Below are positions 9,858-39,134 of a DNA stretch of 39,265 bases, piece by piece. A program made the translations under genes and the position numbers. The number at the start of each line of letters is the position of its first letter. Positions within the stretch are counted from its first letter, which is position 1. The DNA comes from Catajapyx aquilonaris (taxonomy: Eukaryota): assembly GCA_000934665.2 (NCBI GenBank), contig KZ538942.1:1-39265 (forward strand), read 5' to 3'. Below the pieces are notes generated by a model, which saw nothing but the letters and a program-made list of their open reading frames with translations, searched no databases and was not told where the DNA came from.

Positions 9858-11257
9858 GGAGATGACAAGGTACAATCATAATCCTATGGATTTGTGGGTT
9901 GGTAAGGGTTAGCAAACTATCATCCTCTCTTGTTATAGGAACACAGCAATCATGGATGTGTAAGCAGTGGTGTCATGGAGTGGGAAAAACTTAATATCTG
10001 CCCATTTACACTGGTCTCTTGAATGACCTATTTGCATTGTGAGATTTGGATTGTTATTTTTATTTTTTCCAACTTGTATAGCTAATTTGGAAATTTCTGG
10101 AAGTGCAATTATTTTAGGGTGGTGAAGCTGTAGCAAGCAAAATTGTAAAATATACTTATATTTGTGCATTAGTGTGCAGGCATATTCCGAAGGATTTCTG
10201 CCCACAAAGTGAAGGGGGGGGGGGGGGGGNATTTAATGGCTCTTTTTTCCTCCTCAAAAGTTTCCAAAAAAATAATTAGATGGATATATGATATATACTA
10301 GGATATAATTCTCTTTTACATTTTTTATTTTCCAGCCATATTTCTACGTGTTTCTAACATTTTCCCTCGTTTAAATTCATGCACTGTGTCACTGCTCATG
10401 GTTGTTACATGTGGGAAACTTCTTTTTCAGAATTTCATGTAGGAATGTAGTTGGTTTTGTATACTGTGACTGTAATTTTAGTGAATGGAGGGAACTGGAC
10501 GACAAGGAAATATTTCCTTTGTGGGCAAAATGCAACAGCATATTGTATACAGCTTGTAAGTTATTTTGCAGTACGTATTTATGTCGAGTCACTTCCAAGG
10601 CATTTCCTAATCTTGTACAAAGGAGTCGTTTTTTCTGAGTATCAACATCATTTTCAGTAGGTGTACATAAGTGTATAATGTTGTGAACAGTACAATTGTA
10701 GCCGTATTGCCATCACAGTCGATGCCATAGGTTACATTTCCCTTTGCTTTTGGCGAAGACATCAGAAAGAGCAGGATGGGTTGGGGCACAAGTTGCTTTG
10801 TCATGGTGTCAATTTTTTAAATTGATGTATTTGTGACTATAGCACGTTGATAAGCCAGTGTATTTAATGTAAACTTGGAAAATGTTAGATAACGGTAATC
10901 TTACACTGCACGGTAAGCTTACTGTAAAAAAACAAGTATTTTGTGTACTTCTGAATCTGTATTTGATCTGAGGTCCAACTGTAATAAATTAAACAGCAGC
11001 TTTTCTTTCTTGCAGTCCTCATTTTCTGCCTTGGCAAAAAAAAAAAAAAAACAAGTTATGACCATAAAGCTATGTAACATGAAAAATGACAAGTGCAGCT
11101 GTTCCATCCTCCCTGTAACTCAGTGGCAGAGCCCATGCTTATGAACCCAGGTTGGATTCCTGGCAGGGATGCTTCATGCAGCTGTCGACGAGCTTGACAT
11201 GTTCTGCTTTTGCAGTATTGCTGTTGGGTGATTGCCTATTCAGATGTAACATGTTGG

Positions 11258-11263
11258 AATAAA
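11258..11263 (+). promoter_or_regulatory. Candidate WIPI2 polyadenylation signal
   Basis: AATAAA followed about 17 nt later by a GT-rich tract (TGTTGTTTGCTTGTGGT); would give a 3' UTR of about 1.4 kb. Confidence 0.45.
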
Positions 11264-11552
11264 AGTTGGAAATCTGAATTGTTGTTTGCTTGTGGTAGAA
11301 AAAAAGGGGAGGGGGTTAGAAGAAAAATCATGTTGTATGCTCAAGTATCCACTTTATTCCACTGGTTGTAGGCAGTTGAGATATTCCAAGAATTGAGCCA
11401 ATGGCCATGCAATATACATCTCCAGAAACATTCAAACAAAATGATGAAAGCTGTGCACCAATTAAGATGATGCAAATCTAACTAGGTAATGTGGATCAAA
11501 ATCAGTGCAATTTGTTGACAAATAAAATTAATGGAAAAGCAATCCATTGCAC

Positions 11553-12142
11553 AATTGAGGGGCTCAGGAGAAAAATGTGTAAACCGCCAGTGGGAAATAC
11601 AAAATGTTCTCAGTCTGAATGTTTTCCGTGGAAACAAATGAAGCGTGGAAGGTGTCATCTGGTGGGGAGTACCTTCATGAGTATTCGTGAATTTTTCCCC
11701 ACCTGCAGAGAGAGTTGGTCGCTGGCAGTCAGTCTGTGAGTGACTGAGCGTAATAGGCACCCGTTGAATTTTCATTTTCCGCGAAAATTAAGGAACGACA
11801 TGAACAGGGTACGACTCACAACTCAGTCACCATTCATCAGTGTTCACGAAGTCGAGATCACCGTTTGAGGAGTCCAGAATGTCCTGCGAGACTTGCAGCT
11901 CCGTCGGTAGGTAGCTTTGGCAGGAATTGAACGTCTCAGGAGTAAAACATGTTCACCTGCACGCGGCAGTGGGCTCATAGGCTGACTGTTAGCGACTGGT
12001 ACTCTCTGCAGGTGGGGAAAAAATTCACGAATACTCATGACACCTTCCATGCTTCATTTGATTCCGAGGAAAACACTCAGGCTGAGAATTTTTTGCATTT
12101 CCCACTGGCAGTTATCACGTTTTTCTCCCATGCCCCTCAATT
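11553..12142. mobile_element. Foldback MITE (inverted arms of about 190 bp) between WIPI2 and NPL4
   Basis: AATTGAGGGGC ... GCCCCTCAATT ends; internal pairs such as CATGAGTATTCGTGAATTTTT / AAAAATTCACGAATACTCATG. Confidence 0.85.
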
Positions 12143-12536
12143 ATTGATAATCCCACCAAAATGTGCATGTGGAATGCTTGAAGCAGCCGTCCAATTCACA
12201 TGCATTTATATCGCTGGTTTTGAATAACTTGTCTGTCCTGTGATGACCACACTCTGTGATTCCAATGTTGAAAAGTCCGTTTTTCTATTTAGATAATTAT
12301 TTACAGAGAAAATGGGTTTTATTTGCAGCATGAATGCTGCAAATTGCTCACCACATAAACTGAACCTTAGATGTAACAATTATACAGGGTATCCAGCAGT
12401 CAGTTCAGGTATGTATGAGAATTGTGGATAGCTTACTAATCAGCTACTATCTCATTGCTCTATTATGAATCCATTAATCACGTTGTCTGAGTTAACAGCT
12501 GATAAGCAAGAGGTACACAATGGTTTACCAAATATA

Positions 12537-12955
12537 CAGGGTGCTGTAATTTAACGTATTGCCACCTTGGGGGATGGTAGAGGGGTTCTAGGCGATCATT
12601 TTAAGTATAGGTATTGTTGGTCTACACAACCTGAGATGATGGGCTTCAAATACAAGGGATAAAATATTCTGACTGGTATGCAGGCCTCTGCACGACCTTA
12701 CCTTTTTGTTTCAAATTTTAGGCTTTACCAGGCAATGTAAATTTGAGGTATGATCACATTATGTGCAGCTGGCAATGGCCTAGGCAATGGAAGGGCTGTA
12801 GGCCGTATCCGAGACAGAAGATGGCATAACGCATTCTTTATTTATTGCTAATTATCTTGGTAACTGGGCTTCAAAGACCCATGATATCTATAAATGATCG
12901 CTTACCACCCCTCTACCATCCCCCAGAGGAAAGTATGTTACATTTCCATACCCTG
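12537..12955. mobile_element. Tc1/mariner-type MITE
   Basis: TA|CAGGGT ... ACCCTG|TA; subterminal pair GGGGGATGGTAGAGGGG / CCCCTCTACCATCCCCC. Confidence 0.75.
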
Positions 12956-13786
12956 TATATCTGAGCTGATATTGAGATTCCCTCTTTAAAAAATGCACAC
13001 TGCACAAAAGTAATGTATCACAACAAAAATCTATTGCGCTTTCGCTTGTCGTATCTTCAGTGGCACTGAAATTCCTCGATGCAAATTGCATAATGCTGTG
13101 GTTGCATATATTAGAGACTTACTACAAGTATTTGTGAATAGTGGTACTTTAGTGTCATAATTTTTACCGTAAGACTTGCAAAAGTTGTAATAAAACATTC
13201 ATTAATGATATTGGTATTATATTAGTTGAAATAATAAGTGGTGAAATTATATTCCATTGGTGTGATTCTCAGAATATTTCAAGGTTTTTCTCACTGACAT
13301 CCAAGTCCTTTGCACATCACATGCAGAAAAAAAAACTTAGACTTCATGAGGTGCTTTATGCCAGCAACATGCCTCATGACAAATTCTAAGGATGATTCTT
13401 GTTATGATGTACTGGTGTATCACAGTTTTATCAAAACACACACACATCACAGAATCAGGCCATTGCTATATGGCAAATGCTTTGCTTGGACGATCAGCTG
13501 CCTGAACAATGCATCTTGTCCACTCTTGAAACAAATTTTGTGCTTAACGAGTCAACACTCGAGCAGAACCCTTTAATTTTTACACAGCAACCATGCACAT
13601 CCACTTTTCAGTGAAATGGGGGCATGTGTATGATTAACCAAAAACATGAAAAAAAAAATCTCTAATGGCTCAAAAAAATTGTTTCCCCCCCACCAACAAA
13701 TGACCTCTTCACCTTCCTCTTCCTTCTGCAAACTTGCTGCAGTGGGGTTCCTGCAAGCAAAATCCAGTGCTTTGTTTCCAGGCTTG

Positions 13787-14086
13787 CTACATTCCAGGTG
13801 CAGCTCGGCCAAGTCTAGGCAGGTTACAGATCTCGCAGTTGTTGAACTCGGCTTGGTTAAGATACGTGCAGTGTGGGCAGGTCCAGAGGCTTGACTCTGA
13901 TGAATTCCTGCCAGCCACACTCATGTCACTCTCTGAATTTGGGAGGCGGGCAACTACAGGGGATCCTGAGCTGGAGCTAGCTGCAAACAGTTCTTCCACT
14001 GTAGCCCAGTGTTCTCCATTGGACCACTCTCGGGCCATGGCCCCGTTCTTAGAGCGGACTGCCTCCAGGAGGGGGCCCATGTGGTC
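13787..14086 (-). CDS. NPLOC4: NPL4 terminal exon (NZF/RanBP2-type ubiquitin-binding zinc finger)
   Basis: [34 protein letters not shown]...[32 protein letters not shown]. Confidence 0.95.
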   Translation of the reverse strand, partial: DHMGPLLEAVRSKNGAMAREWSNGEHWATVEELFAASSSSGSPVVARLPNSESDMSVAGRNSSESSLWTCPHCTYLNQAEFNNCEICNLPRLGRAAPGM

Positions 14087-17000
14087 CTGGAAAGTTAGTG
14101 TGTGTAAAAAGCCACCCATGATTTTACATTTTCATTATACCTCTCCTCAGCCTAGCAGCAAACAACTATATATTTTTCACATCTCCCATAACCAACAATG
14201 TCATATAGGATTTGTTTCTGTAATTTCTACATTACTCTGATTAATCAAAATTGAGAGGCGGGTAATTTTCTTCTGTCCTCAGAAAAGGAAGTATTTAAGA
14301 GGAATTGTGTTATTTTATAAATACAATATCGTGCCCTCTGGTGCACTGCCCAAGTGTAAAGCTGGGTTGGATGGTTGATAATAAATCCTAAACATGTGGT
14401 GGGCCCTTGTTATTCATTGCTTTTATATTGTTTCGATCAATAAATAATAAGGATCAACAACTTGGTCAAGATTTATTATCAATAATGCGAAGAAGAGGAC
14501 AGGGGAGAAGTTATGGATTGCTAACTCCAAAGAAGCAACAATCACAAGTGGACGTGTCCTTGATTGCTGAGGCAAACAATCCTTAACTTCTTCCCTGGCC
14601 CGCATCCTCTTGACTGCAGTCTTGGACACTGCACCACAAGTTGCACCATCCTGCCGAAACCAGGCATCAACTCTTTGCTTTACTACAATATTTTCTACGA
14701 AGGAATTTCACCTACTGGGAACCTACAGTAGTCTCATAAGTCTTCACCAGAATGCCTTTAAAAATATTAAATCTAAACTCATGTACATGTTTTAAAATAT
14801 GCAATACCAAGGCTAAATACTGGATCTGGTAAGAAACTGTTTATGCAAACTAATGACAAGTCAACAGTTCAACCGGAGCCTTGAGGAACAGGATGGATGC
14901 AAATCCTGGACAAGGTTGTTACAACAGGAGTGGGGAAGAACATCCTGCTGTGCCATGTATAGTATACTCAAATCTTGGATGGGCAGCACCAAACACAGTA
15001 AAACAAATCTGCCTGGATTTGTTTAATAAATATACTAGTTCGGTTTAATCGATACTGATTTTGGGGCACCCTGCTTAAAGTCAGGAATCTTCCAAGAATG
15101 GTTACAAAATGGCATTGTAGAAGGCCCTGGTCACTTGCATGATCATTAATAAATTGACTTTGTTAACAACATGTCCAATATAGCAATATTTGAAACAAGG
15201 AATTACAAGCATCAACCAACTGTTTTGGGTTGACTATTAATCACACAACCCAGTCTAACAGGTTATGTTAGAAGGCCTTTAGCAACTACATTTCGCTGGA
15301 AGTCAGGTAATCTTAAGAAAAAAAAGCGGTTAAAAATGTAATTTTGTATCCTTCAGTTACGATGGACTGCATGATTGATAGTAAATCCAGAACAAGTGGA
15401 TGATCTTTGTTATTCATTAATGGTTTTTTATTACTGGAGGTATATTGACTGGCTTTTAAGGGTGACTGGGTAGTGTACAGTAGAGAAGAGCATCTTACTA
15501 CTGATATCTCCCTTGGTATTCCAGAGAACATTCAACCTTTCCATCTTCATCTTTTTGCTCCCGATGGTACATGGGCATGAAATGATCGGGGATACAAAAC
15601 TGTAGGGGATGGGGCTGGCAACCATGGGGTCACTAAACTAGAGTGTGTAGGTGCCAAAACTCCTGCCCTATTGTGAGAGCATGTTATGCCACTGCTAGTG
15701 GACAGAGTATGTAATGGCACTGTCCTTGAATTAGATGGTATAAAGTAATGGGAACCTGGCAAGCACACACAAACACCCACACAAAATGGAATGACATAAG
15801 AACTATTGGAGCATTTAAGTAACTGAATTGTCTGCTGCTATTTTTTATACCTTCCAGCCTCTAATTCTCTCTCTCCTTCCTACATCTTCATCTACATAAC
15901 CCTCACAGTGCATGGTGTGGGTATGGGCCACTTGTATAGGCACACCATGCTCAAATTTGAGTTAAACATTTGAGTTCATGCCTGTTTGCTGTCTCACAGA
16001 AACACTAACATTACACTAACATACCTTCATGGGCAGCATGTCCATCCCAGCAATGTAGATCAGAAAATGGAAGTCTGAAGCTGCTTTAAGGAACTGCTCT
16101 GGTGTGAACTGCCGCATGTAAGCATGCAGTGCTGTGAAATCTTGGATGTGGCCGTCAACAAACCTGAAACCATAGAAAGAATCAAGTGTGTGGAAAAAAC
16201 CATCTTGTATGCTTATGCTCACCTGTTCTCCACTGGAAAGCTCCGGATCTTATCATTAGCAAAGAAGGTGTGTTGTGGATCCAGGGGTGTCGAAACAGGC
16301 ACATCAATGAGAAGGTACTCCACTGGGAGAGGTCGTGCTAGCTTTGTCACTTCATTTCCGTATGCATCTTTTTTCTGCAAGAAAAATAGCAATTATAATG
16401 ATCAGCCCATATATTAATTAGTGTAAACAGGGTAACACCTAACAAAACAGAAGTAGTTTTTCTGACGGTCTCTGATATATTTTAGCAGTTTATAGTGACA
16501 TACATTCCCATACGCTTCTGTGAAGTAGTGTGAATATTCCACAGATATTTGAGTTAACAGTTTCAGTAAACACAGGGTGTTCCAAATATATCAGTGCTAC
16601 TTTTGGTTATAGAGAATTTCGCTGGAAGCTGTGATTTTTTGTAGCTTGTTGCCCCCCATTCCGCTAATGAGGCATCAGGAAAAGGGCGCAACAAGCTACA
16701 CCCAAATAACTACTTCGAGCGATATTAGCGATAACTAAAACGACCCACGAACTAGGAACACCCTGTATAATAGATATAGAACGTCTCCCTATCATGACAT
16801 TCTCTTACCACCAGCCCTTGTGACTTGTGTTCGAACCCGCGCCACACGTATTTCTAAGCCTGCCTGTCTTACGACTGCGCAGTTTTGCGGATGGCAACCG
16901 TCCTTTGTCGACTTGCCCGTAACGCCGCTCAAGGACGCGGCGGCAGAGGTGTGAAGCACAACCAGTAGAACACAGTCGTCTTGGAACCCCCCTACACTGT

Positions 17001-20000
17001 CATATTTCCGCTTAGCAGAAATCCAGCAGATCGAGAAAGGTTGAAAACAAGCGCTCAAGATTAGGCACTCCATGCATGAGCCTACCACCTGCTAGGCCTA
17101 ACACCATTATCCCATCCCTTATCCCGCCTGTGGTCTGACATATTGTCACCAACAGGTCTGCTGGCCTGGTTGACATGCTGCTGTTCCAAGCCTGAGTTCG
17201 GATTCGCAATCATGACTACTCAAGAGGTGGGTACTACATTCAGTCACTCATGGGATAGGTTCGGAATGGGAATTATTGAGTTTTGGAATTGTCAACTGAT
17301 GGAAATGAAGGTGTCATGTGTCGGTATCAGCTGAGATTCTAGGGTTAAGCGGACTTATCCAAAATGTTCCACAGTGGAATTTGGGGCTAGCGCCTGATTT
17401 ATCAGTCTGGTAGGGCAAGTGCCATGCTGCAATGTTATGGCTATTTCAAATGTTATAGTGGAGGGTGTGACCCAGTTATGTAGGCAACATGGGTTCTGCA
17501 ACAACAACAAAAGTCCATAAATGTTAAGTTAGGACTCGAGTTACACGGAAACTGGTGGAATTTTTGTATTTTTCATTAGCAGTAGTGACTTAGCAACTGC
17601 TAAGATTGGAATTTTCATCATATTGCTATCCTCTTTTTGTAAGCCACCGCGAAAGGCCCGGATAGGAGAGGCGCCATGCCAGATTCTGCGCAGTGTGTTA
17701 GGAGCCATTTGACATCCTCGGAAAGTTGGCATGTCTTGCTTATAATTGGCAAGATACCTGTTGTCAAATGCACACTACAATACTTCATCATTCCAAGACA
17801 AGTGTATTTCAGGCCATATTGGTTAAGGCAAAGGTAAATGACCTTTCAGAGAAGGGTAAATGAAGGGTTGTTCTCACATCAGCCATGTTTCCCACCTTAG
17901 CAGTATGTTCGAGAGACCCGGGTCATCTCTAACACGCTGCATGTTAGCAGTGACTGTTCTTAGAAGTAAGACGGAAATTCCACTTGTAGCAGTAAGCTTA
18001 GCAGGTACTTGGCAGTTACTAAGTCACTGCTAATGAAAAACACAAAAATTCCACCAATTTTCTTGTAACTAGCCAATTGTTTAAGAATTGCATCCCCAGT
18101 GTTTATCGAGTGAGCCTAGCTGGCCTTCTCTCTGGTTTGTATACCATTGTGAATATAGAACTGGTACTTCACCATTCGAGTCCTTTCTTCCTGCCACCAA
18201 TACACAAAGGTATCAGCACTTTAACGTTTACAAACGCCACTACAGGGCACACTCTTCTGTTAGTGAAGCACTTCTGGAATTGTTATATTGTTGACTACAA
18301 CAGAAGGAAGGGCCATTCCAGAAAAAAAGTGACAGTGGCATTCAGGAAATGGAAAAGGATCCAGGTATCTTACAGCCAATGACAAATTTCTTGAAGATTG
18401 CTCTGAATGTCTAACTATTTTATACCTATATTAGTTGTACTTGCTGGGTTAATTTAGTAACAATGGTGACCAAGCAGCTAATTAATATAAGTAGTACACA
18501 AGCAGTTAGGGCCCTTTTGAATAACACACAACATTTGGGCAGGATTCCCCTCCCCTCATTAGTTCAATGAGCCAATTTCACTTTCCCCTTATTACCATCT
18601 ATAGCTGTGCCTGATATGAGACTGCTGCACCAATGTGTTTGAAAACTAGTAAGCAGCTGCACTAAAGGATCACATGGCTTTTGCATACTATTTGAGCTAG
18701 TTCTATCCTGTTGACTTCATATAAGGTCATGTTTCACTGAAAAATGCTGCAGCACCACAGAAATACATGTGACTCTTATGAGCCTGCAAGCAGACTGTTT
18801 AGACAAGACAGCCACACTGTCACTTTTATAAAGGGCTATTTGCGAAATCGCTTATTTGATTATGTGTCAGGGCCCTTGCAGTGGGTGGTATGCACCCCTG
18901 CCACCTGCAATTTTTTGTGGCCCTGCTGAATGTGACATCACAATGCTACCAAATGCACTGTTGGTCTTTAGACAATGTATTTTTGAGATCTTCCGAAGTC
19001 TAAATATGCTGTAAGGAGTCCAAGGCAATAGTCAGTTGTCTGCCTGAGAAATCACTACATCAGCACCTCATCCAAGAACTAAAATCTTTCACCTGACTGT
19101 TTCCTAGCCTGCCAAAATGGCTGACATGTTGTCAAATGGGGCGTTGTCATTGCATCTCAGGGGCCATAATTATGACTTGGTATCAACAATTGAAAGGGTC
19201 ACACTCTCAGCTTGCACTGTACCCATATTGCAAATTTCTATATAGCAGGTGTAACTGAAATCGTATGCTCATTGATGGAAGCAGCATTTCTCAACCAGGG
19301 TTTCGTGAGAAAGAGGGATGAATGGGCTAATCATATGTAAATGTATTTTTGAGTCATTAATTGATAGGTCGATAATATGCATTAATTTTTATGTAGGGAT
19401 TCCCTGAGACATGAATATTATTTCAAGGGTTCTGCAAGGTTAAAAAGGTTGAGAAAGTTGGATGAAAGAATAGCAGCACTTTAAAAAATTACAACATGAA
19501 TATAAGCTGGAATCAGATGCAGAAGCCAGCACGTCATGCCTGTAAAGAATTTCCTTCCCAGCTACCTAACTACTACACTAATAGCATCAGACACATTATC
19601 TTGAGATTTGGAAAAGCCTTGGATGGCTTTTTTAGTTGGCAAAAGGCATGTAAATTGCAGCCCAGTATGTCTGGAGGTTATGTCAGGAGAGATCAATTTA
19701 ACTAGCAATTGGAGCATGCAGGCAGGCCTGTCATCCAGCAAAGTATGTGGTCAGTGAGGTAATCCATATTTAATTGCTACTTCGGGTCCTTTTGGGACAC
19801 ATGAACATCTTGCTCTTAGCAGTGTTGTAACAGGGTTGTGCACAAATGTCTGCCAGTGTGTTATAGTCAAACATGTTACTAAAGCTAGGTTGCATTGCTG
19901 AATGTGTACCTTCAACTGAAGGTTTATGGTTATTGTCTAAATCTTTCGGGGGGCATGGTGGTCTAGTGGCTATGCTACTGGCCAGCCAAACGGGAGGTCC

Positions 20001-20090
20001 GGGGTTCAAATCCCATCCCTGTCACCTCTTCCCTTCTCTGCCCAGGGCCAAGAGAAAAGGTCTGGTATTTAAGAGGGTCAGAAATGACTA

Positions 20091-20130
<40 letters not shown>

Positions 20131-23100
20131 CCCCCCCCCAAAAAAAAGGGCCCAAGGTCCTATCACAGGTAAAACAGACAATCAAATACTTGCCAATCTT
20201 TGAGCATAACTTTTCCTTTTGATAAACCATTTGTGTACTTTCACTGCCAGTTCATTTTGGTTTATTTTCAAGGAGGTTTGCAACTACCAAAGATGTGAAG
20301 AAATGACATTTTGTAATTGTACAGGATGCCACAAAGTCAAATGTTTTGGTAAAAATAATATGTATATTCCTGAATTAAATTGGCCATCTTATTGCAAGGT
20401 GCTTGGGCTCCCATGTATTTGCAGGAGGTCTGTGTGACATCACAAGAGTGAACCTCTAGATGGGATTGTACATGAGATTTCTGCCAATACTGGCCTTAGC
20501 CTATTTAATGATAGCTGATTTTTTTCTCTGGTTGGTTATGGTGGTCAAATGTCACATGAACCTGGTTGCTGTTGTAAGGGATTGCTTCCTCTTTACAAAC
20601 TTTACAGGCTAGCGGCAATAACAAAAGAAATGAACATCGTTGTTTTTCTCCAGGGCATCAACCCAGATATCGTACTGGCGCTGGACCAGCTCACCAAGTG
20701 TCATTTCTGCAAGAACCGCTTCAATGAAACAGATCTCCTACCAAAATTCCTGAGCTGTAAGCATTACTTCTGCCTGGCTTGCATTAGGAATGAATTTCTA
20801 CGAGGAAGTGAAGTCTACTGTGTCAGCTGCTGGAACCGTACTTCTGTGCAAGAAGACGGACCTGACTCACTGGAAACCCACACATCCTTGCTCATCTTGG
20901 TACAAAACCTGCACCATTTTCACATGGTTGCATCAACTTCAGCAGGATTTGAACCGCCAGGTCTGGGGCCTCGAGTTAAGGAAAACTGCGCAATTCATGG
21001 GATGCCTCAGGTGTCTTGGTGTTCTTATTGCCAGGAGGGTCTGTGTCATGTCTGTGCACAGGAGCATACAACTAACATGGGCCATCCCCTCAAGTCCTTG
21101 AAGGACATCAAAGAACATATGTCAAACCAGTTGCAAGCTGAAGCTAACAACATTGGCAAGATGGTCAATGAGATCATACGCCTGGAGGGCAAGCAGCAAG
21201 ATTTTCTTCTGAAAGTTAGTATTGAGGTGTTTTTCATACATTTCCCTAATGATGTAGTTACACACGAAGAATTTACTCCTCAAGATTGTGACAGGTAAAT
21301 AGTAATACCATTGCACTTTTCCAGGTTTTGGAAGCGTGCACTACACTTAAACATGACATTGAGTCAGAACTGAAGAACGGCAATCAAAGCATTTCAGAAG
21401 CCCATGAGGTGCATGACCTAATGGGTAATGCTAGACGTGGCTTTATGACGATGGAAGGCCCATCTAGTTTCCTGCTGGCTAATGTCACTGTTGCTGCTCG
21501 GAAGAAAAAGCTGCAGGCTCGATACCAGAAGCTTCTGCTACAAAGTCAGATGGATGACGTAATATCCAACAGCAGCGTGATTGTGGACTTCACAGCAGTC
21601 AAGCATGCCGTGCAGTCAACAAGTCAAACCAAGAACCTGCCAATGTACATGAACAATGGAAATCCATTGAGTGATCCCATCCTTTTTCTGACCAACTACT
21701 GCCTCTCGCGACTGTACCCTCGCCACGTGATGACTGAGTGGCACTCACAACAGAATGGGAACTTTTCTGATATGTTGGCATCCCTACCATCTGCTACGAA
21801 CCTACTCTCCTTACAGCAGCCAACTCAAGGGTCCTCCCAATCATACACTCCCTTGCCACTTCCCAAGCCCCACCACTTCCTGACCCAGCAGGAGAAAATC
21901 ATTGCCCCGCCCAGTAATTCCATGCCACGTGGTCCTCTCCATCCCAAGTTCTTTTTCAACATTGAAATCAATGGAGTGGATGTGGGCCGCATTGTAATTG
22001 AAGCCCGTCCTGATTGTGCACCGAAGATGGTGGAGAACTTCGAGTCACTCAGTACATGTGAGAGGGGGATAGGATACAAAGGATGCTCAATCTTCCAGTG
22101 CTGGAAGGGGGAGTCACTTATCACTGGTGATTTTGAGTACAACAATGGTCGTGGTGGATACAGTGTCTTTGATGAGCCCTACTTCATGCCAGATGATACC
22201 AAGATGCCTGCAGTTCGTGGGGCTGTTGGAATGAGACGCACCCAAAAGCGCCACGACAACAAAGGTCTAGTGGGTTCACAGTTCCGGATCATTCTACAGG
22301 ACATGCCAGGTTTTACAGCCATATTTGGCCATGTCATTGAAGGTCTAGAAATGATGGACAAGCTGTCGCAGTGTGGTGACAATGCAGGAACACCCACAAA
22401 GTTGATATCCATTGCCCACTGCGGGAAGCTGTGAGGCACCAATCTTAAGTTCATAATTATTCGGAATAAGTCAATCTTTAGTCCCTATTCAGAGTGAATG
22501 TGGACATACTTTAGGCGTACGGGTAACACTAAATGCAACGAGCTGTCCCCCAAAGATAAAGCCAACCCTGCGGTTTTAGGCAAACTAGTTATTTTTGTGG
22601 TTTATTCATCTCAGTTCCAATGAAGACTGCCTCTTCATGCCTGGATTCACTGATCCCTGCCCCAAGATTTAACGTGCAATTGCTAGGAGTGAATAAATGT
22701 TAGGTTGCATTTTAAACCTGAGGCTAATCAGGTGATGCATCAGAGATGTTAAAAACCTTCACTTTGCAAGCTGTACAAGTGCCTTCTGAATCCTGTGCAA
22801 GGGACACAATCCCAAGTGTCAGTATGCAGTGATTGCAATTGTATTAAGTCTTCCCAGTAAACATGTTAAGTCTTGGGGACAAGTAAATCAGTGCACCAAA
22901 TTGGCAAATAGAGACATTCAGGATCCGAGAGAGCTTCTTCATCCTTTTTTGTTGCATTTTAAAATGTATAACGGAAAGAATTCTTGAGTTTTGAAAAGAA
23001 AAATTATTTCATGCTGATTTTTATTTTTAAAAGTGTTTTGATTCTAATGCACAAGGACTTGGGCCCAGTCGAGTTAAGACATAGCTGTAACCTAAAAGTA

Positions 23101-26100
23101 GTGTACAAGTGATAAATGGCTAATTTCTGTGTTCTTTGCAGAGTAAAAAAGTTGTATGTGTGAAGTGTTGTTCATGCTTCATTAAGTGGACAAGTACACG
23201 TACGTAATGTAAGGACTTCCATGTTGTTATTGAGTTGTTGCTCTCCTCCATGTAGGGAACGAGTTAGAATATGTTCCTGTCAGTGAAAGCATTCCTCTGT
23301 GAATATAAACTGCTTTTTTTGTGTGAAATGAGAAAGAGGAAGAAACACTCGGCTCAATGGTGTCCTTCCAGAGAATGTTGGAGCTCAAAGCTTGTTTTTG
23401 CTCTACATTCTAGTCCAGTACTCTTCTATCTACACATGTAGACCTATTATTTGTTCTTTGTAACATTGATTGTCAAGTGCTGTCTTGGTTGGGGCAAGGA
23501 GGCAGTCTACATCCTTATGAAGAGGGTTTGCCTAAATTGATTTTGCATTCAGAAATTGAAAATATCACCTTATTTTTCCATGAGTTACAATAGTCACATG
23601 AAGATGTCACATCAAAAGACTGTTTCCAATGCAGCACTTGGTAATTAAAAGCAATGTTGTGTCAAATATTCGTCTTGTTGGTGGGAGGTGTATGTGACCA
23701 TTTTGTTAGTAGTTTATTCCATAGGTGCTACACACGGCCTTTAATTTCATTTGACATGTCTGTGTCTTGGTCATGTGTGGAAAGTGAAAACATGACTGAA
23801 CACCAGACTACTTGTTACCAACTTAAAGATTGATCAGTGAAGATGGTGCATCTCTTACCCTCCCACCTTCCAGTTTCTGTGCCTTCCATGGCCTGGTTTT
23901 TCTTGAACAACTTCCATGTAATTTCCAAGGTGTCCCTAATTTATCCATATCTTTAAAAAAGGCCAATTAATTGTTATTTGGAGTATACTTTTAGTTCCTG
24001 GTTTAAGTTATTAAGTCCTGGTTTTATTAATCACATTTTATGTTTCTTGTGAAAAATGATGTGCACCAGGCAAGATGAGAATTTTCACGTTTTGTTTTTC
24101 GTTGTGTTATCAACAAGTTCACAGTTCATTTTACTAGTTCATTTCAGTTTTCACTTGGTCTATATGAACTATTCTTGTAAAGAAACTCTACTTGAGTCGT
24201 AAAATTACAGTCATGCTTATTTTTTTAGGACGGAAATAAAGTTTATTCTCGTTGAGATAAAGATAAATGCCTTTTTCTGCCAAATCCTGACAATGTACAC
24301 CTCCCTGCATTATACTTATTACCTTAATGAAAGGAGATCGAAAATGGGGGGAGTTCAATTGTATAAGCATCCTTAACCAAAAGTAGGCCTACAAATCTGA
24401 GCACAATGCAACTGCTGAGCAGTAGTTATGATGCATATATTTTTAAAATATCTGAATATGCATAATTTCAATCTCTGAATTTTCGAGCAAGAGAGCCTAA
24501 AAGCCTGGAATTCATAGTCCTCAAAAACCACCCACAATCATTATTGCCCTAAAGAAATACCAATCATCAAAACAAAAGCAAAACGACCACTCATATAACG
24601 TCATCATAAATCTCATCTGTGGCCAGCAAGGTTGTTTGAAACCTCCTGACACCATCATGGGAGCTGTTGACTGTCATCTACATTACAGTGCACACTTACA
24701 CCCATCACAGAGACATTGCTAGGTCACCATTTCAAGGTTTTTGAAATGTCAGATGCATGGTGGAACTCATTGTAGGTAAAGGCTGAATTGGCAGTGGATG
24801 TGCAGATGTGGATAATGGCTCATGTACAAGGGGAGTTCAATCAGTTTCAGGCCATAGGCACTTACACTAAGCGAGGAGGATGAAACTTTGTCATTTTTCA
24901 ACACAGTCCCCTTGACACTGCATGCACTTGTCTCACCAGTGTTGCACCCCATGGTCTCCTTGAGAAAAAAACAAATTCTCGAGGGCTTGCTTGAGGGAAT
25001 CCAATCATATGTTCGTTTCAGCTATCACCTCTTCATCCCTTCCTAATCTTGACTCACAAGGTGTTCTTTCAACTTGGGGGACAGGAAAAAGTTTGACAAA
25101 GCCTTGTCAGGGGATTGGGGGGAGGGGAGGAGGCTCGAAGCCACAGCCATGACATGAGTTGCACACTGCACAACATGATATCCATAGCAGCAGCAGGGGC
25201 AAGAGTTCTAAGGGGGCCTATCACGGGCAGAGGAGAGGATGGTACTTTTGTGCAACACTAAATGTATCTTTGCAACACTAGGGCACTGATATTAGCCCCA
25301 GTAGGTCAGGGGGGCCGGGGGGGGGGGGGGGGCCCCATCTGGCAAATATTCAGCAATAGGCCACAGCCGCTTCCTTTCCTATCCTTGTCCCGTCCATGAG
25401 GAGGTGCGGTGTTGGTGGGGGATTTCTGACTCGCATCGGGGTCATCCTGGCGAACGGGCCCCCTGAGGGACTGCACACGACCCCCAACTTGAGACATTGC
25501 ACATGCACCAGTGTCCCCCCCCTCATTACCCCAATGGGGCTATTTCATGAATGGTCAGTTGGTGATTTTCAAGAACCATATCCTGAATTTGTCGACATTA
25601 TCTGATGTCAATGTGGTGGGAAGGCGTCCTCTGCAGGGCTCTCTCCCCATGCAAAATTGTTCCACCCATTTCTTGATGCCGGTAAGATGGAGTACCATCA
25701 CCCAGTGTCACGTGCATGTCCTAGAGGATTTTTTTTCTCGGTGACATCCCCTTCTTGAAGAGAGATTTGATGGCAGCTACACTCTCTCCATTGTGGTTTT
25801 CACCTCCCATTTGTCTTGCACTCTTTGGCTTGTAGGATGAAAATGGATACTTTGCAGTAGGCCTATCACTTGCAGAGGACATTTGCCTCAGGAGGGGAAA
25901 GCACATTCGCATATGTTCCTTTTACCTTGGTCCCAAAACTTATCGAACTCCAAACACAGATGAGCCTTTATCCAAACCAACCCTTCACATACCCAAGAAG
26001 ATCTTGAACCACTTAGTTAACCTATACTACTCAAAGCATGTCAATCCTATTTCCTTTTGGCAGTGCAGCTCAAGGGGTATCATGGTTCAAACTTACAGAG

Positions 26101-29100
26101 CGATCGATTCAACATGCAACATACCTTATTTCAAGATTAAGAGGTGATGTGACTGATGTCACATCATATGGTTCTAGTGTCCAACCTGCTATGTCAGGTA
26201 AATTAAACTGCAGCAGTATGTCTCCATAGTAATTGCTTGCAATAATTTTTTCCAGTGCTTAAATTATCAGTTTTTGTGAAACAATAATTCAAGGGTGGTA
26301 AATGGCTTTCCATGTGAAACTTGAAGGTGAATTCACAGGAGTAAGCATTCACAAAGGATCCCTCGACCAAGATTGATTTTGCAGTGTATCATGATAATTT
26401 TCATCGGAAGTTGTTCATAATACTATAGTAAGTTATATAATATTAGATTAAAAAATGAAACTCAATTTTCAAGTATCTGTTCTCTAAGTAGTGAAAAACC
26501 TGGTCTTAAAAGTTGACAATTTGCATTTTTTTAAATTTATTTTTTGCATTTGAAATGGCCATAGATAGAGGGTGGAAGGAACAGGGAAAAATTTTAATTT
26601 TTATGGCTGTACCAGATGATGGCTCCATTTTTTAGTTGCATAATTTTTTCACTAACCATAATTTTACGAAAATAAAAATGTACACTCTACTCCCAATTAT
26701 TCAGGTGCGGATTATCCATGTTTCGGATTATCTGTGCATGGCTAAAACAAAGAAAAGTCTGAAAAATGTCAATTTTTCTCACAAACAAAGAAATACAACA
26801 TACTTTCCCAAACGCATGACTATTTGACCACCCCAAAGAAATGCAGTGGTGGGGTTATAAACAAGATGTGATAAAAAGTTTCTATTAAGATTAGCTGGAC
26901 TTTAGAATTGATAATTATGAATAGTAACAATTGAGCTAGGAGGATGCCAAAGAGGAAGTTAATGTGGCAGTTAACAACTGAAATAAATACGATTATAGCT
27001 TGGACAGTGAATTTCTGTGGTGTCTGGTAAAAATTGCTGCCACTATGTTTATTTCTTACTTAGCTGGATGTAAATGTTGATAATGAACCTCAGGGGCCAC
27101 ACAAACCCAAAAACTGGATTGAAATTAATTACTAAAAATCTACCACGGAATTTAAAAACATTTATCATGGCTTGCAGATATTAAATTTTCTGTGCATTTT
27201 CAAATTAAGGCATTTTTAAAGCCATTTTACATTAATTGAATTGAAATTTTTTATCATATCACATTGGACTGAGTTCTAAATAAGCAATACTCTATCACAT
27301 TTTAATTTATCAATAAATAACGCTGTTAAATGTGGTACACCTAAGTGTATCAATTTCTGAAACAATCCACTATCTATATTTTTTAATTCCGTGGTAGATT
27401 TTTTGTAATTGATTTTAATACAGTTTTTGGGGTTGTGTGGCTCCTGAGGTTCATTATCAACATTTACATCCTGCTAAGTAAGAAATAAATGTAGTGGCAG
27501 CAATTTTTACCAGACCACACAGAAATTCACTGTCCAAGGTACAGTATAATTGTATTTATTTCAGTTAACTGTCAAATTAACTTCAACTTTGGTATCCCCC
27601 AGCTCAATTGTTACTATTCATAATTATCAATTCTAAAGTCCAGATAATCTTAATGGAAACTCTTTGACATCTTGTTTATAACCCCACCACTCCATTTCTT
27701 TGGGGGTGGCCGAATAATTATGGGTTTGGGCAAGTACATTTCCCAGAAGACAAACTAAAAATCTACGAAAATTTTCCTAATTGCTATTAAATCATATTTA
27801 AATCAGAGTACAGTCGTTCATTAAAAACCTGTGAATAGCTCATTTTACTGTGATCTAGGACCATTGTTCGATTATCAGTGTTTTCCGATTATCTGGCGAC
27901 ACCCGTGCAGCCATTAGCCCGGATAATCAGTAGTAGTGTATTTATGAATGATTCCCCATTGCAATATCTCCATTTGCAGTGTTGCCACATTGTTCAACCA
28001 GCATTAACTTGAATAGTACGGTAAGTTTAAGTGAACAATGTGGTTAAAAAAATTGGCTATCATCTACCTACTACTGTCATAAAAATTAAAATAAAAATAC
28101 TGGCAGGTAGGCTACCTAGTGTCTTCTGTGGCCATTTTAAATGCAAAAAACCAATCAAATTCTCATTCTTGTCCAGATTTTCACTATGAGGGTGAGTGTG
28201 ATTGTCCCAGGGAATACACATTTCAATAAAAGTGAAAGTACACAGTTCACGTGACTCAAGAGATGGTGTAGAGTTGTAGCCACTTCTTGCCTGCTGTTTC
28301 CCCTCCTAGACTGAATTTGGAAACTCAGGCACACAATAAGTATACCTATTCCCTGTAACCCGAAAACTGCAAGGTAATTATGGCTTGCCCAGTCTGCAAA
28401 ACAGTCAACTCTGGATATAACATACTTCAAGGGACCACAGGAAAAAGCATGTTATAACAGAAGTCTGTTACATCCAAATCACCAATTTTGCAATGAGCAC
28501 GCGACGTTTTCTGCCTGTTGCATGGCTATAATGTACACTACTGCATACCGATTAATGAAACTATCCCCAAAAATGCAAAATTAGCTCACCTGTGAGTTAC
28601 ACAATCGACCAAAAAATCAGTAATTCTCTTTTACCATCTCCCCGTCGCAAAAGTACAAGAAAATTAATGATTTTGACATTTTCGGCAAGTGTAATATCAT
28701 GTCTCTTAACTTGCTGCACGACATCTTTGCCATCTTTGACTCAACTCCCTAACTCTGGTATAGGCTCGGGTCGAGAGTGCCCAAGTTCGGTAACCTAGGT
28801 TAGCTCTGTGACCCAGCACAAAGGATAAAGACTCCTGGATACATTTAACAGAGCACAGATGTGCCTTAACCTTGAAATGCAAAACTTTCGAGTAGGAAGC
28901 TTAGATAAATGACAGATTAGAAAATCACCCCTGATCCAATATATAGTGCCTTCCTTGAGTGGGAAGTGATGCAAAGTAATAAAAAACAGCATATTTTCCC
29001 ACCAAGGGGCCAAGAAATGGTCTGCCATAGCCAAGGTGAGGTGAAAAATGGGTCTGCTGCATGCAGAGTAAAAATACTCAGGGCCTTATGGAAGGATGGC

Positions 29101-32100
29101 AGGTCCTGCCTTTCAAGTCCGTTATAACTGAGGCTGTTATATCTGGAATGAACTGTATAATGGGTGTCCAGTGAAAAAATTAATATGCAAATTCACCTAG
29201 ATGTTGTACTGCAAATGAGACTTAATATCTATTCAGTGTGCTCAGAATTAAGCTCATATCCGTATTGATAGATATGTTGCGGATACTCCTGCATCATGTT
29301 GGTACTCTTAATCCTGAATGCAACCGGCAAAGGATCTTTTCCAGGATTGTTTTTTTTCTCAATCTGACAAAATCTTTTGTGGAAGCTGTTCATAACAATG
29401 GCAGATGAAAAAGTGAACGTCAGTTTTGTTCTATAGATTTGAATTTCGCAAAAATTCGCCTTTCAAATTCTCAGATTTGCCATTTTTCTGCTGTCAAATC
29501 ATGACAGGAGGTACAAGAAAGGAAAATAATTTCAATTTTAATTTTTTCAAGCAATGTAGATTGTGACTGATTTTTTTCAGTTGACAATTGTTTATTAAAA
29601 TTGGAACTAATTATGTTAATGTGTCCAAAATCATACCCTCCCATTGTAGATTACCCCTTTTGAACCTGGATAATCAAATCATTCATGTCAGTCAATCTCT
29701 CATTCAGCAAGCAATTGGCATTTCGAAAAATCAGTCCCAATCTACGATTGCTCAAGAAAATTAAAAGAATTCTTTAACATTTCTTGAGCTTCCAGTTGTG
29801 ATTTTAAAGTGGAAAAATATTACAAAATTGAGAATGGGAAATGCTGCCTTTTGTAAAACCAGGCATTTTTACAACAAAACTGAGTTTCACTTTTTCATCT
29901 GGCGCATCCAGAAAGTTAGTTCCATTTCTTATTAGAAAAGCTGCAAAGCACACCCAGAATGTTTATTATGTACACCTGAAAGGTTCAACTGTCTACTTTT
30001 TTCAACATAGCTTCCCACCAAATTGATGCATTTGTCATCGAGTTACAGAAGATTTTGCATGCCTATGTTGTGGAAGTTTGCCGCCAGCCATTTCCCCGCT
30101 GGACTCCTCGTCATTGTCAAACCTCCGCTTTGCATGTCATTTCTTCGTGTCCATGGACAGGTGGTAATCGCTAGGTGCTAAGTCCCGGTTCTAAGGAGAG
30201 TGATCGAACAATTCTCACTTGAATTGTTGTGGAAGGTATCTAGTACGTACGGCAGTATGCGGGCAGGCATTGTTGTGCAAGAAAACACTCCGGAACTCAA
30301 CATGTTGCTACGTTTCTTTTGAATGGTCATTTTAACATCGGTAAAGTCTCACAATAAACCTTTGGATTGAAAAAAACATAGCGACATAATGAGTTTCGGG
30401 GTGTTTTTCTTGCGTGACAATGCCCGCCTGCATACTGCTGTGCGTACTGGATCCCTGCCGCAACAATTCAAGCGAGAATTGTTCGATCACTCTCTTTAGA
30501 ACTGGGACTTAGCACCTAGCAATTACCACCTCTCCATGGACATGAAGAAATGACATGCAAAGCAGAGGTTTGACAATGACGAGGAGTTGCAGTCCAGCAG
30601 GGAAATGGCTGGCGACAAACTTCAATGACATATGCATACAAAATCTTCTGTAACTCATGACAAATGCATCAATTTGGCTGGAAACTATGTTGACAAAAAG
30701 TAGACAGTTGAACCTTTGTTTCAGATGTATGTGATAAACATTCTGGGTGTGCTGGGGTAGGTCTCTGTATGCCAAGTACTTACAACAGTGAAGTTGTAAT
30801 CTCATAATTTCTCACAAGCCAACATCAACGACTGTGTGTAATTGAGAAAAATAAATACATTGTAGAGAGCAATAAGTCAGTCTTTAAATATCCTGCCACA
30901 TTGGCTGTTAATGATCTGTACACTCATCATAACATATGGCTCAGTTCTGAGAACAGTGGCTGTTCCTGAAGAGAGTAGAAAGGCACATGTCAGGTTAAGC
31001 AAGACACCCCAGTACACTTGTTTTAGTTAATATATCTGAACTGCTTGGTTCCAACATGGCACTTCCTGAGAAGCTCACGGACTTGAAAATAACCGTGTGC
31101 TGCTAACTTTTTCATGAGATTGCAAGTGAGACGATCAGAGTGCACCTGCCTGGGCAGGTTAGTAACTCTCCAAGACTCCATACAGCCAGAAATTTGCATT
31201 AGGTAATAACACTACTTGAAATAACAGTCATCAATTTTAGTGACATCCACACACACGTAAACCTCAGGTTATTTTTTGATGGAATGTATATTAAAATACC
31301 CATCAATACTGCTTTAGCCATGTCATTGTTTTTCGATAGCATATAAATATTCTGGGACCGGGCTCATTGCAGCTCTCTAAACAGCAGCAGCATTGCAAGA
31401 CTTGCTACTAACCTTGTAATAGACATCAGGCACATACTGCTTCTCTGTTGATTCACGTACAAATCCAAGCTCCGGTGCATCTTTGGTGGGAATTAGGCAG
31501 TTGTCCCGAACCAAGGCCATGCACTGGTTTGAAACCTGATATCCTTCCATATGCACTTGATTTGATGCATCACCTAGGAACAAATGACCATTATAGTGAT
31601 AGCTCCCATGCTAACCTATCCAGTTCCTAACTTTGTCTTGAAAATAATATGACTAAGGCTAAAGTTGCCAACATAAGTATCTTCCCATACTTAAGGGGGC
31701 ATGCCCACAGGAGGCAATAATAATGCCACAACCAGCTGCTGATTTCAGCAGTGCTGTTGCTGAGCTGAAGTGTGCACACAAGAGATAACTCAACACTTTC
31801 TCTAATGGAGGGCTGGATTCACAAACTGATTCTTATTATTATTATAGTTGCGGCACCCGGCGTTGCCCGGGAAGAAATGAATGAAGGGAAAACACCTACA
31901 TGTAGCCAAGTCAAAAATTTTCACGCACAGAGCCGATGCACAGAGAGTCGCCATGACACTTTTGGGAAGGGTGGGTCGGAAGGATGGGAGAGGTTTGAGG
32001 TGTAGGAGGCGGTTCACAGATGACGGTTGGCATCCCAGACAGAATCACATCCGTCTTTATTGATATAGATTTTGCTGTCCTTTGGAAAAATGTCACATCT

Positions 32101-38265: not shown

Positions 38266-39134
38266 CTGCAAATAGACAGAGTGGTGTAAAATATGTACAT
38301 ATGTGCTCCAACAGTAATTAGGCCTAAATATGTCTAACCACTCCCTTACTCTCAGCTTAAAATCTGGAAATAACATTACATGAACATATTAATAATCCGT
38401 GGAGGAAGTGGGGGAAGCCATATGGTTTGCAATGTATTTCTCTTACAGTTGTCTCATGTTACAAACACAGCAGGCTACCAAGCCTCCTTACCAACCCTAA
38501 ATGCCAGACTCCTACCCTTTATGTCATATCTGCAGAGGTTAACTTAGTAGTACAAGGGAATATGGCCAAAATGAGATCAGTCAACTGAAACGAAAATGAT
38601 TTCATTCTGGCAAGTCTGGCCATTTCAATTGCTATAAGCCAATTTTGCCAGTGAACGTCAAATTAGCATTATCAATGATGATATCAGGCAGAAAGATTTG
38701 GGATATTTTGTCCTGCCTACTTCGTACAGGAAAGTCACTTTATATGCATAATTTTCAACAGAGGTTGTCAAATGGAACAATGGAATTTGACACTCTTCTT
38801 GCCATTTCTTGACCATAAGGTCTGACCATGAAAAGAGCCATGTGAAAGACAGGAAAAACAAAGTATGGAACTAAAAATGAGTCAGGCAGAACTTTCCCAT
38901 AAGGGAGAAAGATCTGATCATAATATAGTTTTACATGACTCCAACAATGAAGTAGTAAAATCCTGCCAAAGCCTGGCCCCATAACAAGGCAACCATTTGG
39001 ACTTGTTCATATGATGTTTCACCAGCATTGGGAGAAACCCAATATGAGAGAATGGGGGAGCGGAGCTGGGCCAATAGCACATGCATCTGTGTGCCTGGAC
39101 TTTCCAGACTTGACTCACTGTTTTAAATTATTAC

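Follow-up and report, generated by a model that had tools for sequence, protein, structure and literature searches.

A three-exon RING, B-box and cyclophilin-like gene of Catajapyx aquilonaris, likely the local member of the conserved CG5071 family

The window analysed here is a stretch of 39,265 nucleotides of Catajapyx aquilonaris (contig KZ538942.1 of assembly GCA_000934665.2, forward strand). Two open reading frames on its plus strand, 20549..21298 (249 aa) and 21328..22434 (368 aa), are exons of one gene, which is nested within NPL4, in an intron of 15 kb, and runs antisense to it. The neighbours are housekeeping genes, namely a PROPPIN/WIPI-type gene and NPL4 itself; neither a paralogue cluster nor immune genes were found nearby in the window. 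The locus is a real spliced gene of three exons (17212-17226, 20654-21214 and 21325-22434), and its product of 561 aa consists of a C3HC4 RING, a B-box 2, a helical region, a conserved linker motif and a C-terminal cyclophilin fold. Its features are as follows, each with the evidence used.

17001..17211, plus strand: 5' untranslated part of exon 1, a lower bound set by the extent of the contig carrying the 17226|20654 joint
17212..17226, plus strand: coding part of exon 1, the ATG and four codons (M T T Q E), then GT at 17227; sequence, contig joint and the start MTTVE of relative P0001
17227..20653, plus strand: intron 1, 3427 nt, GT..AG; exactly this stretch is skipped by one spliced contig of run X1
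20654..21214, plus strand: exon 2, 187 codons, with RING, spacer, B-box 2 and the start of the helical region; sequence, Pfam and alignments
20699..20830, plus strand: C3HC4 RING finger, C-x2-C-x15-C-x-H-x2-C-x2-C-x12-C-x2-C; Pfam zf-C3HC4 at residues 16-59 and ligand conservation
20981..21100, plus strand: B-box type 2 zinc finger; Pfam zf-B_box at residues 110-149, aligning to the TRIM3/TRIM2 B-box
21215..21324, plus strand: intron 2, 110 nt, GTTAGT...TTTTCCAG, phase 0, with an in-frame TAA at 21296-21298; sequence and continuous homologues
21325..22434, plus strand: exon 3, 369 codons and TGA, with the remaining helical region, the linker and the cyclophilin-like domain; sequence, Pfam, homology and model
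21325..21627, plus strand: helical (coiled-coil/L2-like) region, continued from 21101-21214 in exon 2; AlphaFold2 model of exon 3
21673..21729, plus strand: family-specific linker motif; invariant columns in 84 rows and a helix in the model
21940..22431, plus strand: cyclophilin-like domain with replaced active site; PF00160, PPIF match, Foldseek and 87/87 homologues
22435..22697, plus strand: 3' untranslated region with AATAAA at 22692-22697; contig to 22664 at least, hexamer read from the sequence

The splice sites of intron 2 are canonical and in phase (GT at 21215-21216, AG at 21323-21324). Both flanking exon ends, 21214 and 21325, fall on codon boundaries and give an in-frame join; retention of the intron would lead into the TAA stop at 21296-21298. 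The intron splits the helical region, and the second reading frame has no nearby ATG, its table-11 start being TTG. Relative P0001 (552 aa, 75% identical) runs unbroken across the join, as do all 87 full-length homologues, and in the MAFFT alignment with these homologues the residues flanking the join rank with the most conserved ones. It is this homology that predicts the 21214|21325 junction.

Additional evidence comes from the public run X1. No kind is recorded for this run; we take it as RNA-derived because its contig joints have GT..AG or CT..AC ends. The 21214/21325 joint is absent among its listed contig pieces, and the run neither shows nor denies the splice. One spliced contig joins 17226 to 20654 with GT..AG ends, skipping 3427 nt, with 226 letters on the shorter side. 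The upstream exon reached in this way holds an ATG at 17212 and the codons MTTQE, whose counterpart MTTVE begins P0001. Position 20654 is the start of an exon and the gene starts further upstream. At the other end, a contig of 556 letters spans 22109-22664 with zero differences. An odd joint from 20962 to 21526 (CT..AC) has 24 letters on one side, fewer than the 31 needed, and was set aside as a likely assembly artefact.

A preliminary description of the window had already joined the 249-aa and 368-aa frames through the in-frame GT-AG intron 21215-21324, and the continuity of the 87 homologues bears this out. It placed the gene at 20654..22434, which holds for the end and for exons 2 and 3; the start has to be moved, as the first coding exon at 17212-17226 was missed. 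For annotation the outcome is that two reading frames and, 3.4 kb upstream of them, a first coding exon of 15 nt become one 561-aa gene, antisense within the NPL4 intron.

Both zinc fingers score just under the Pfam cut-offs: zf-C3HC4 yields 20.4 bits (cut-off 21) and zf-B_box 23.1 bits (cut-off 24.1, which relatives pass at 25.9-29 bits). All eight ligands are nonetheless present in each, numbered along exon 2: C16, C19, C35, H37, C40, C43, C56 and C59 for the RING, and C112, H115, C123, C126, C131, C134, H138 and H144 for the B-box. The zinc-ligand columns of an 84-row alignment show conservation of 90% or more. Among solved structures, exon 2 is closest to TRIM3 (E 5e-5), TRIM2 and TRIM32; a TRIM5/CypA chimera reaches E 0.13. 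An AlphaFold2 model of exon 3 alone places helices at 2-17, 25-41, 46-82 and 89-101 (pLDDT 55-85), and the linker motif lies in a further helix at 118-143. Its residues L122, N124, Y125, C126, L130 and Y131 are invariant in the 84 rows, and Artemia, Musca and CG5071 retain the motif. With these elements, the order of RING, B-box, coiled coil, linker and cyclophilin given in the preliminary description is recovered by Pfam, ligands and model, with a predicted helical region in the place of the coiled coil and the zinc fingers staying slightly below cut-off.

The C-terminal domain is recognised without difficulty. Pro_isomerase (PF00160) matches residues 211-367 of exon 3 with 68.6 bits against a cut-off of 21.7. 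By sequence PPIF is matched at E 6.5e-23 and the solved TRIMCyp cyclophilin 2wlw at E 3.9e-20. Foldseek matches the fold to cyclophilins D and A (TM 0.82, 32-33% identity, E 4e-16), with the TRIMCyp cyclophilin structures 2x83 and 4dga also among the matches. No other part of the protein is conserved as well: the mean identity of the domain to the 87 full-length homologues is 0.70, against 0.52 for the RING, 0.39 for the B-box, 0.36 for the helical region and 0.15 for the second linker.

For the active site we assume the roles and numbering of the CypA residues R55, F60, M61, Q63, F113, W121 and H126. In the phmmer alignment to human cyclophilin D (CypA numbering) R55 is replaced by Q, F60 by E, M61 by S, Q63 by I, A101 by R, F113 by R and H126 by T, and W121 is deleted; a 5-residue insertion is also present, its placement near A101/N102 being uncertain. 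Each replacing residue is found in 87/87 homologues and is invariant in the 84-row alignment as well. From the catalytic and cyclosporin-binding set that was checked only Q111 is kept, and the GSQF strand is conserved too. The resulting signature (F-Q at H54-R55, E-S-x-I at F60-Q63, M-R-R and GSQFR) is present here and in all 87 full-length homologues. It also occurs in nematoceran flies, the pocket replacements are kept in Artemia, and CG5071 keeps the Q at the R55 position; Musca departs from the signature with a K at this position. By alignment, the domain has lost the catalytic residues of CypA. Their identical replacement across the homologues makes it probable that the domain binds a partner without isomerising prolines.

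The closest known protein is Drosophila CG5071, which is uncharacterised and combines RING, B-box and cyclophilin. Its isoform D (P0204) is collinear with both large exons, at 29% identity in the RING/B-box part (E 7e-13) and 50% in the cyclophilin part (E 3e-62), and the linker is collinear too. The two proteins share the RING, the B-box, the helical region with the LTNYC linker motif and the cyclophilin-like domain, including the pocket strings FQ.W..ES.ITGDF and GMRR...GSQFR. The fly protein is longer (680 aa versus 561) and far more diverged outside the cyclophilin part; the fly also has isoforms of 508-509 aa.

The spread of the family was assessed by several searches. With exon 3 as query 236 proteins were found at E <= 0.001, and PF00160 and PF00643 are both present in 79 of the best 120. 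Among these best 120, 58 rows carry species names; they represent 56 species, all insects from many orders, and no species with two loci was seen in the 58 rows (two species appear twice, each with the same locus). The middle region alone (204 aa) is much rarer: an exhaustive phmmer search of 1.84 billion cluster representatives returned only 22, and 11 of the 20 scanned have a cyclophilin match at E <= 0.001. The named matches are Artemia, Corethrella, Musca, Culicoides and Nyssomyia, and the brine shrimp Artemia carries a pair of near-identical loci on the same contig. A quick tree groups this protein with P0001 and puts both, with weak support, beside Artemia and apart from the insect orders; the SH-aLRT value is 86 and a long-branch warning applies. 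On this tree the source of the window is probably a pancrustacean other than an insect. In a protein atlas the matches were all generic cyclophilin clusters scoring below 0.9.

Conservation differs among the flies. Musca is 42-43% identical to Lucilia or Calliphora overall and 64% identical in the cyclophilin part. A search with the whole Musca protein found only calyptrate flies among its matches, along with 8000 low-complexity candidates, and a search with the cyclophilin region reached Drosophila. The apparently fast divergence of the brachyceran flies, together with the K of Musca at the R55 position, suggests that constraint is uneven across the CG5071 family.

Databases name the relatives 'peptidylprolyl isomerase'. 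In the full-text literature we found no functional study of any member of the family. Those passages of an RNAi circadian screen (PMC12084006) that name CG5071 lines do so only among the resources, and the term 'cyclophilin' is absent from the text of Marin 2012 (PMC3503706). A section of Sardiello et al. 2008 (PMC2533329) describes the combination of tripartite motif and cyclophilin in CG5071 as a convergence with owl-monkey TRIMCyp. The possibility of a known family including CG5071, raised as a caveat in the preliminary description, is thereby confirmed by full-length collinearity and by a publication of 2008. Judged from its sequence, the gene belongs to a family that is already known, conserved and poorly studied; it is an ordinary predicted ubiquitin-ligase gene and not a new antiviral factor.

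Comparison with other proteins that combine such modules shows where the likeness ends. The U-box cyclophilins (human PPIL2/Cyp60 type) unite an E2-recruiting RING-like domain with a cyclophilin reported to be a poor or inactive isomerase; they carry a U-box in place of the zinc RING, lack both the B-box and the TRIM coiled coil, and occur eukaryote-wide. Compared by description only, they resemble the present gene in joining an E2-recruiting domain to a cyclophilin. The primate TRIM5-CypA fusions are recent, lineage-restricted CypA retrocopies in which the CypA pocket is kept. Owl monkey and macaque TRIMCyp have the same order of RING, B-box 2, coiled coil (a predicted helical region in the present protein), linker and C-terminal cyclophilin fold, but their cyclophilin is a near-exact CypA retrocopy, whereas the one described here is old and well conserved, is 32-33% identical to CypA, has a rebuilt pocket and lies in one exon with the helical region. 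Nor does the RBCC part resemble that of TRIM5. An origin independent of primate TRIM5-CypA, as proposed in the preliminary description, is supported. The primate fusions are summarised in PMC2533329 and PMC3137616, and the latter source also reports another independent case in which a TRIM module precedes a cyclophilin domain: a single fish gene, created by an insertion into a RanBP2-like gene, whose cyclophilin is preceded by a RanBD and which belongs to a fast-duplicating family. The gene described here has no RanBD and is part of a conserved family.

Taken together, the gene is likely the local orthologue of the pancrustacean CG5071 family, of RBCC/TRIM type, and the rebuilt cyclophilin pocket of its product would bind one conserved cellular partner in a non-catalytic way. 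By analogy with established TRIM proteins, the RING would recruit a ubiquitin-loaded E2, the B-box and helical region would pair two chains and the C-terminal domain would select the target. The selector would in this case be a cyclophilin fold with a rebuilt proline-binding pocket. The invariance of this pocket across the family leads us to read it as a module that may bind one conserved cellular partner and that would be neither a prolyl isomerase nor a sensor of fast-evolving pathogens. The ligase activity, the dimerisation and the loss of isomerase activity are all predictions.

Other readings of the locus have to be weighed against this. Two separate genes or transcripts, one for an RBCC-only protein and one for a stand-alone cyclophilin, are barely credible: the 87 full-length homologues are continuous and highly conserved over the join, the splice sites are canonical and in phase, the intron cuts through the helical region and the second frame has only its TTG start, with no ATG close by. 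The missing 21214/21325 contig among the listed pieces of run X1 fits such a split, as does the RBCC-only product, stopping at 21298, that intron retention would give. It is improbable, too, that the C-terminal domain is a still active prolyl isomerase tethered to an E3 ligase and coupling isomerisation with ubiquitination. In its favour are the complete cyclophilin fold, the conservation of Q111 and of the GSQF strand, and the isomerase names borne by the relatives. Against it, the catalytic Arg55 is Gln in 87/87 homologues, E, S, I, R and T stand in the places of F60, M61, Q63, F113 and H126, and W121 is missing. In CypA mutants and in inactive human cyclophilins, losing R55 is by itself enough to nearly abolish catalysis.

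The preliminary description suggested an arthropod RBCC-Cyp E3 ligase, possibly a pattern-recognition or restriction factor. On this reading the gene would be an invertebrate counterpart of TRIMCyp, and its cyclophilin domain would catch the capsid of a virus or retroelement. Several observations point that way: the domain order is that of TRIM5-CypA, TRIMCyp cyclophilins (2wlw, 2x83 and 4dga) are among the matches, the brachyceran flies diverge faster and Artemia has a local duplicate, and a part of Sardiello et al. 2008 (PMC2533329) notes the parallel. However, the cyclophilin domain is the most conserved and not the most variable part, and the residues with which the CypA pocket holds the capsid loop are replaced, invariantly so in 87/87 homologues. 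Moreover, the family is old, spanning insects and a branchiopod, with a single locus per species among the 58 named rows. In the RBCC part, similarity to TRIM5 (chimera at E 0.13) does not exceed that to other TRIMs (TRIM3 at E 5e-5), and immune genes are absent nearby. We therefore regard a restriction factor as very unlikely and do not maintain the idea. Quite improbable as well, though of a different kind, is the proposal that the rebuilt pocket, which is invariant and has gained charges (Q, E, S, I, R, R, R and T for a hydrophobic proline pocket), is a pancrustacean invention for one slowly evolving target, which in its boldest version would be the capsid-like shell of a germ-line retroelement Gag. 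The sole hint of the germ line is that three fly CG5071 cDNA clones bear the prefix AT, which presumably denotes an adult-testis library. If the target were a retroelement Gag, the family would be an ancient TRIMCyp-like guardian, conserved because its target is conserved.

The gene opens no long-standing question; the TRIMCyp parallel has been in print since 2008. Summarizing, the CG5071 family presents itself as a conserved group of predicted TRIM ligases, present in insects and in at least one crustacean. That the cyclophilin part is the most constrained one, with its catalytic residues identically replaced, narrows the tests that are worthwhile: these would concern the partner of the domain rather than isomerisation or viral capsids.

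Two long open reading frames lie on the forward strand, and joining them gives part of a TRIM-cyclophilin gene with three coding exons.

Reading frames and coding exons of the TRIM-cyclophilin gene (all plus strand)
20549..21298, 249-aa ORF (ORF reading of the window)
21328..22434, 368-aa ORF (ORF reading of the window)
17212-17226, coding exon 1, 5 aa
20654-21214, coding exon 2, 187 aa
21325-22434, coding exon 3, 369 aa

The preliminary description had placed both frames correctly and united them through a 110-nt GT-AG intron at 21215-21324, a proposal that holds. Read directly from the DNA, this second intron opens with GTTAGT at 21215 and runs up to 21324, closing with TTTTCCAG. The exon ends at 21214 and 21325 each fall on a codon boundary of their own frame, and removal of the 110 nt joins them in frame after ...QQDFLLK; if the intron is retained, the first frame stops at 21296-21298. 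P0001, a 552-aa relative, is uninterrupted across the residues matching the join, as are four insect proteins. When the joined 561-aa protein was aligned with 87 homologues (matches listed from the exon 3 search, at least 500 aa and starting with M), the residues flanking the join ranked with its best conserved positions. Since the homologues read through and the flanks are conserved, we regard the predicted 21214/21325 junction as real on grounds of homology.

The gene does not begin at 20654, as had been supposed, since coding starts one exon upstream. Position 20654 is preceded by a pyrimidine tract and AG. Contigs of X1, a public sequencing run taken as RNA-derived, were aligned to 10000-27000, and a joint was counted only with at least 31 letters on each side. 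One contig connects 17226 to 20654, skipping 3427 nt with GT..AG ends (shorter side 226 letters). No joint at 21214/21325 is among those listed for X1, which counts neither for nor against that splice. The coding part of exon 1 opens with the ATG at 17212, encodes MTTQE and is followed by GT, and the N-terminus predicted from exons 1 and 2 agrees with the start of P0001, MTTVERVNPDILLALDQ. Together these observations yield three coding exons and a product of 5 + 187 + 369 = 561 aa. A 556-letter X1 contig covers 22109-22664 without differences, and AATAAA is found at 22692-22697. Another contig joins 20962 to 21526 (563 nt skipped, CT..AC ends, one side only 24 letters) and is probably an assembly artefact. 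The intron 1 stretch 19639-20205 is repeat-rich, with a CT/GA microsatellite at about 20084-20158; its contig depth is 90.9 against 0.6-6 around it, a single place carries as many as 11 contigs, and the stretch looks like a dispersed repeat transcribed elsewhere.

The proposed order of RING, B-box, putative coiled coil, linker and cyclophilin domain is right. Exon 3 residues 211-367 match Pro_isomerase at 68.6 bits (cut-off 21.7), and both fingers of exon 2 score just below their cut-offs (zf-B_box 23.1 against 24.1 bits, zf-C3HC4 20.4 against 21) with eight of eight ligands each, in columns that reach 90% conservation or more across a family alignment of 84 rows. Relatives exceed the B-box cut-off. 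Among solved structures, exon 2 finds matches in TRIM3 (E 5e-5), TRIM2 and TRIM32, over their RING-B-box parts. In the AlphaFold2 model of exon 3 (mean pLDDT 67.7), helices extend to residue 143 and a disordered segment separates them from a beta-barrel at 208-368, which Foldseek matches to cyclophilins D and A (target TM 0.82, 32-33% identity).

Exon 3 (369 aa) as a query retrieves 236 proteins at E <= 0.001, led by P0001 (75% identity, E 1.7e-180) and followed by proteins of 520-645 aa with 42-52% identity across the whole query. Cyclophilin and B-box Pfam families occur together in 79 of the best 120 of these 236. The same 120 include 58 species-named rows, whose genera we take to be all insects (dragonfly, bugs, crickets, stick insects, lacewing, beetles, wasps, ants, bees and louse); no species among these 58 rows of matches listed shows two different loci. 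In Artemia franciscana, P0133 and P0141 are near-identical 552-aa proteins from LOC136039509 and LOC136039512 on the same contig, a local duplication and the only two-locus case seen. The middle 204 residues are family-specific: with phmmer run exhaustively over 1.84 billion cluster representatives, just 22 match at E <= 0.001, and 11 of the 20 scanned have a cyclophilin match at E <= 0.001. Named matches are Artemia franciscana, Corethrella, Musca autumnalis, Culicoides and Nyssomyia. The Musca cyclophilin region leads in turn to Drosophila, one cluster holding Dmel_CG5071 isoforms A, C and D. Our protein and isoform D are collinear, with identities of 29% over RING and B-box (E 7e-13), 21% over the helical region as far as the LTNYC motif (E 0.007) and 50% over the cyclophilin domain (E 3e-62). 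The caveat that the gene may belong to a conserved, poorly characterised CG5071-like family was therefore right, and the gene is not novel in kind; it adds a member to a known, uncharacterised family of insects and Artemia. For CG5071, three fly cDNA clones have names beginning with AT, a prefix that marks an adult-testis library.

Sardiello et al. (2008, PMC2533329) count CG5071 as one of seven fly TRIM genes and treat its pairing of a tripartite motif with a cyclophilin as a convergence on owl-monkey TRIMCyp. It is also listed as a fly RING protein without human orthologue (PMC3166285), belongs to a gene set enriched in single-walled antennal sensilla (PMC6829134) and, according to the resource tables of PMC12084006, was targeted by RNAi lines in a circadian screen. 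The fish gene ftr52 is a separate TRIM-cyclophilin case described by Boudinot et al. (2011, PMC3137616). Literature searches turned up no functional study of the CG5071 family.

Residues of the cyclophilin-like pocket were read from the phmmer alignment to human cyclophilin D and numbered after human cyclophilin A (CypA), at positions that we take to be catalytic and cyclosporin-binding.

CypA pocket positions and the residue in the window's protein
H54: F
R55: Q
F60: E
M61: S
Q63: I
A101: R, then a 5-residue insertion
Q111: Q (kept)
F113: R
W121: deleted
H126: T

Judged from this alignment, the catalytic residues are lost, and the domain is probably no ordinary cyclophilin enzyme. Each tabulated residue is found in 87/87 homologues and is invariant in the 84-row alignment as well; Artemia and nematoceran flies keep them, and in Musca the R55 position is K. 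Averaged across the 87 homologues, identity to our protein is 0.70 in the cyclophilin domain, the most conserved region; the RING reaches 0.52, the B-box 0.39, the helical region 0.36 and the second linker 0.15. A linker motif of 19 residues is another strongly conserved element. Brachyceran flies diverge fast, as seen in P0137 and P0149-P0157 (calyptrate flies) and P0180-P0192 (Drosophila); Musca against Lucilia or Calliphora shows 42-43% identity over the whole protein, and 64% when the cyclophilin part is taken by itself.

The surroundings contain two further genes. Minus-strand ORFs match successive parts of the NPL4 profiles.

Pfam matches of the NPL4 gene (all minus strand)
38031-38333, zf-NPL4 ORF
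37693-38070, zf-NPL4 ORF
37438-37689, zf-NPL4 and NPL4 ORF
37159-37395, NPL4 ORF
35969-36208, NPL4 ORF
31380-31610, NPL4 ORF, profile positions 127-181
16222-16392, NPL4 ORF, profile positions 177-228
16019-16249, NPL4 ORF
13790-14131, RanBP-type zinc finger ORF

Spliced X1 contigs run from 14085 to 16024 and from 16161 to 16221, both with CT..AC ends. This is an NPL4 (NPLOC4-type) gene of at least nine exons at 13790-38333, and the consecutive matches and spliced contigs place the whole TRIM-cyclophilin gene inside its intron of about 15 kb (16393-31379), nested on the opposite strand. The third gene is of PROPPIN type (WIPI/Atg18-type beta-propeller), at about 2005-5141 on the plus strand, with six ORFs covering successive profile positions 12-343 of 345. 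An assembly gap of 126 N spans 33639-33764, and a single N lies at 10230.

The suggestion that the protein is a restriction factor is weak, and as an account of its likely function appears wrong: the recognition domain evolves more slowly than the rest of the protein, the capsid-binding pocket of CypA has been lost, the gene is old and multiple copies are not seen in the 58 species-named rows of matches listed (Artemia has two loci), and the neighbours are housekeeping genes. By analogy with established TRIM biology, the RING would recruit a charged E2, the B-box and coiled coil would pair two chains, and the C-terminal domain would select the substrate. The selector would here be a cyclophilin fold that is kept while its pocket has been rebuilt, newly charged and made invariant. 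We read the cyclophilin-like domain as a putative non-catalytic binding module, probably for one conserved cellular partner; against this reading stand fast brachyceran divergence and the two near-identical Artemia loci.
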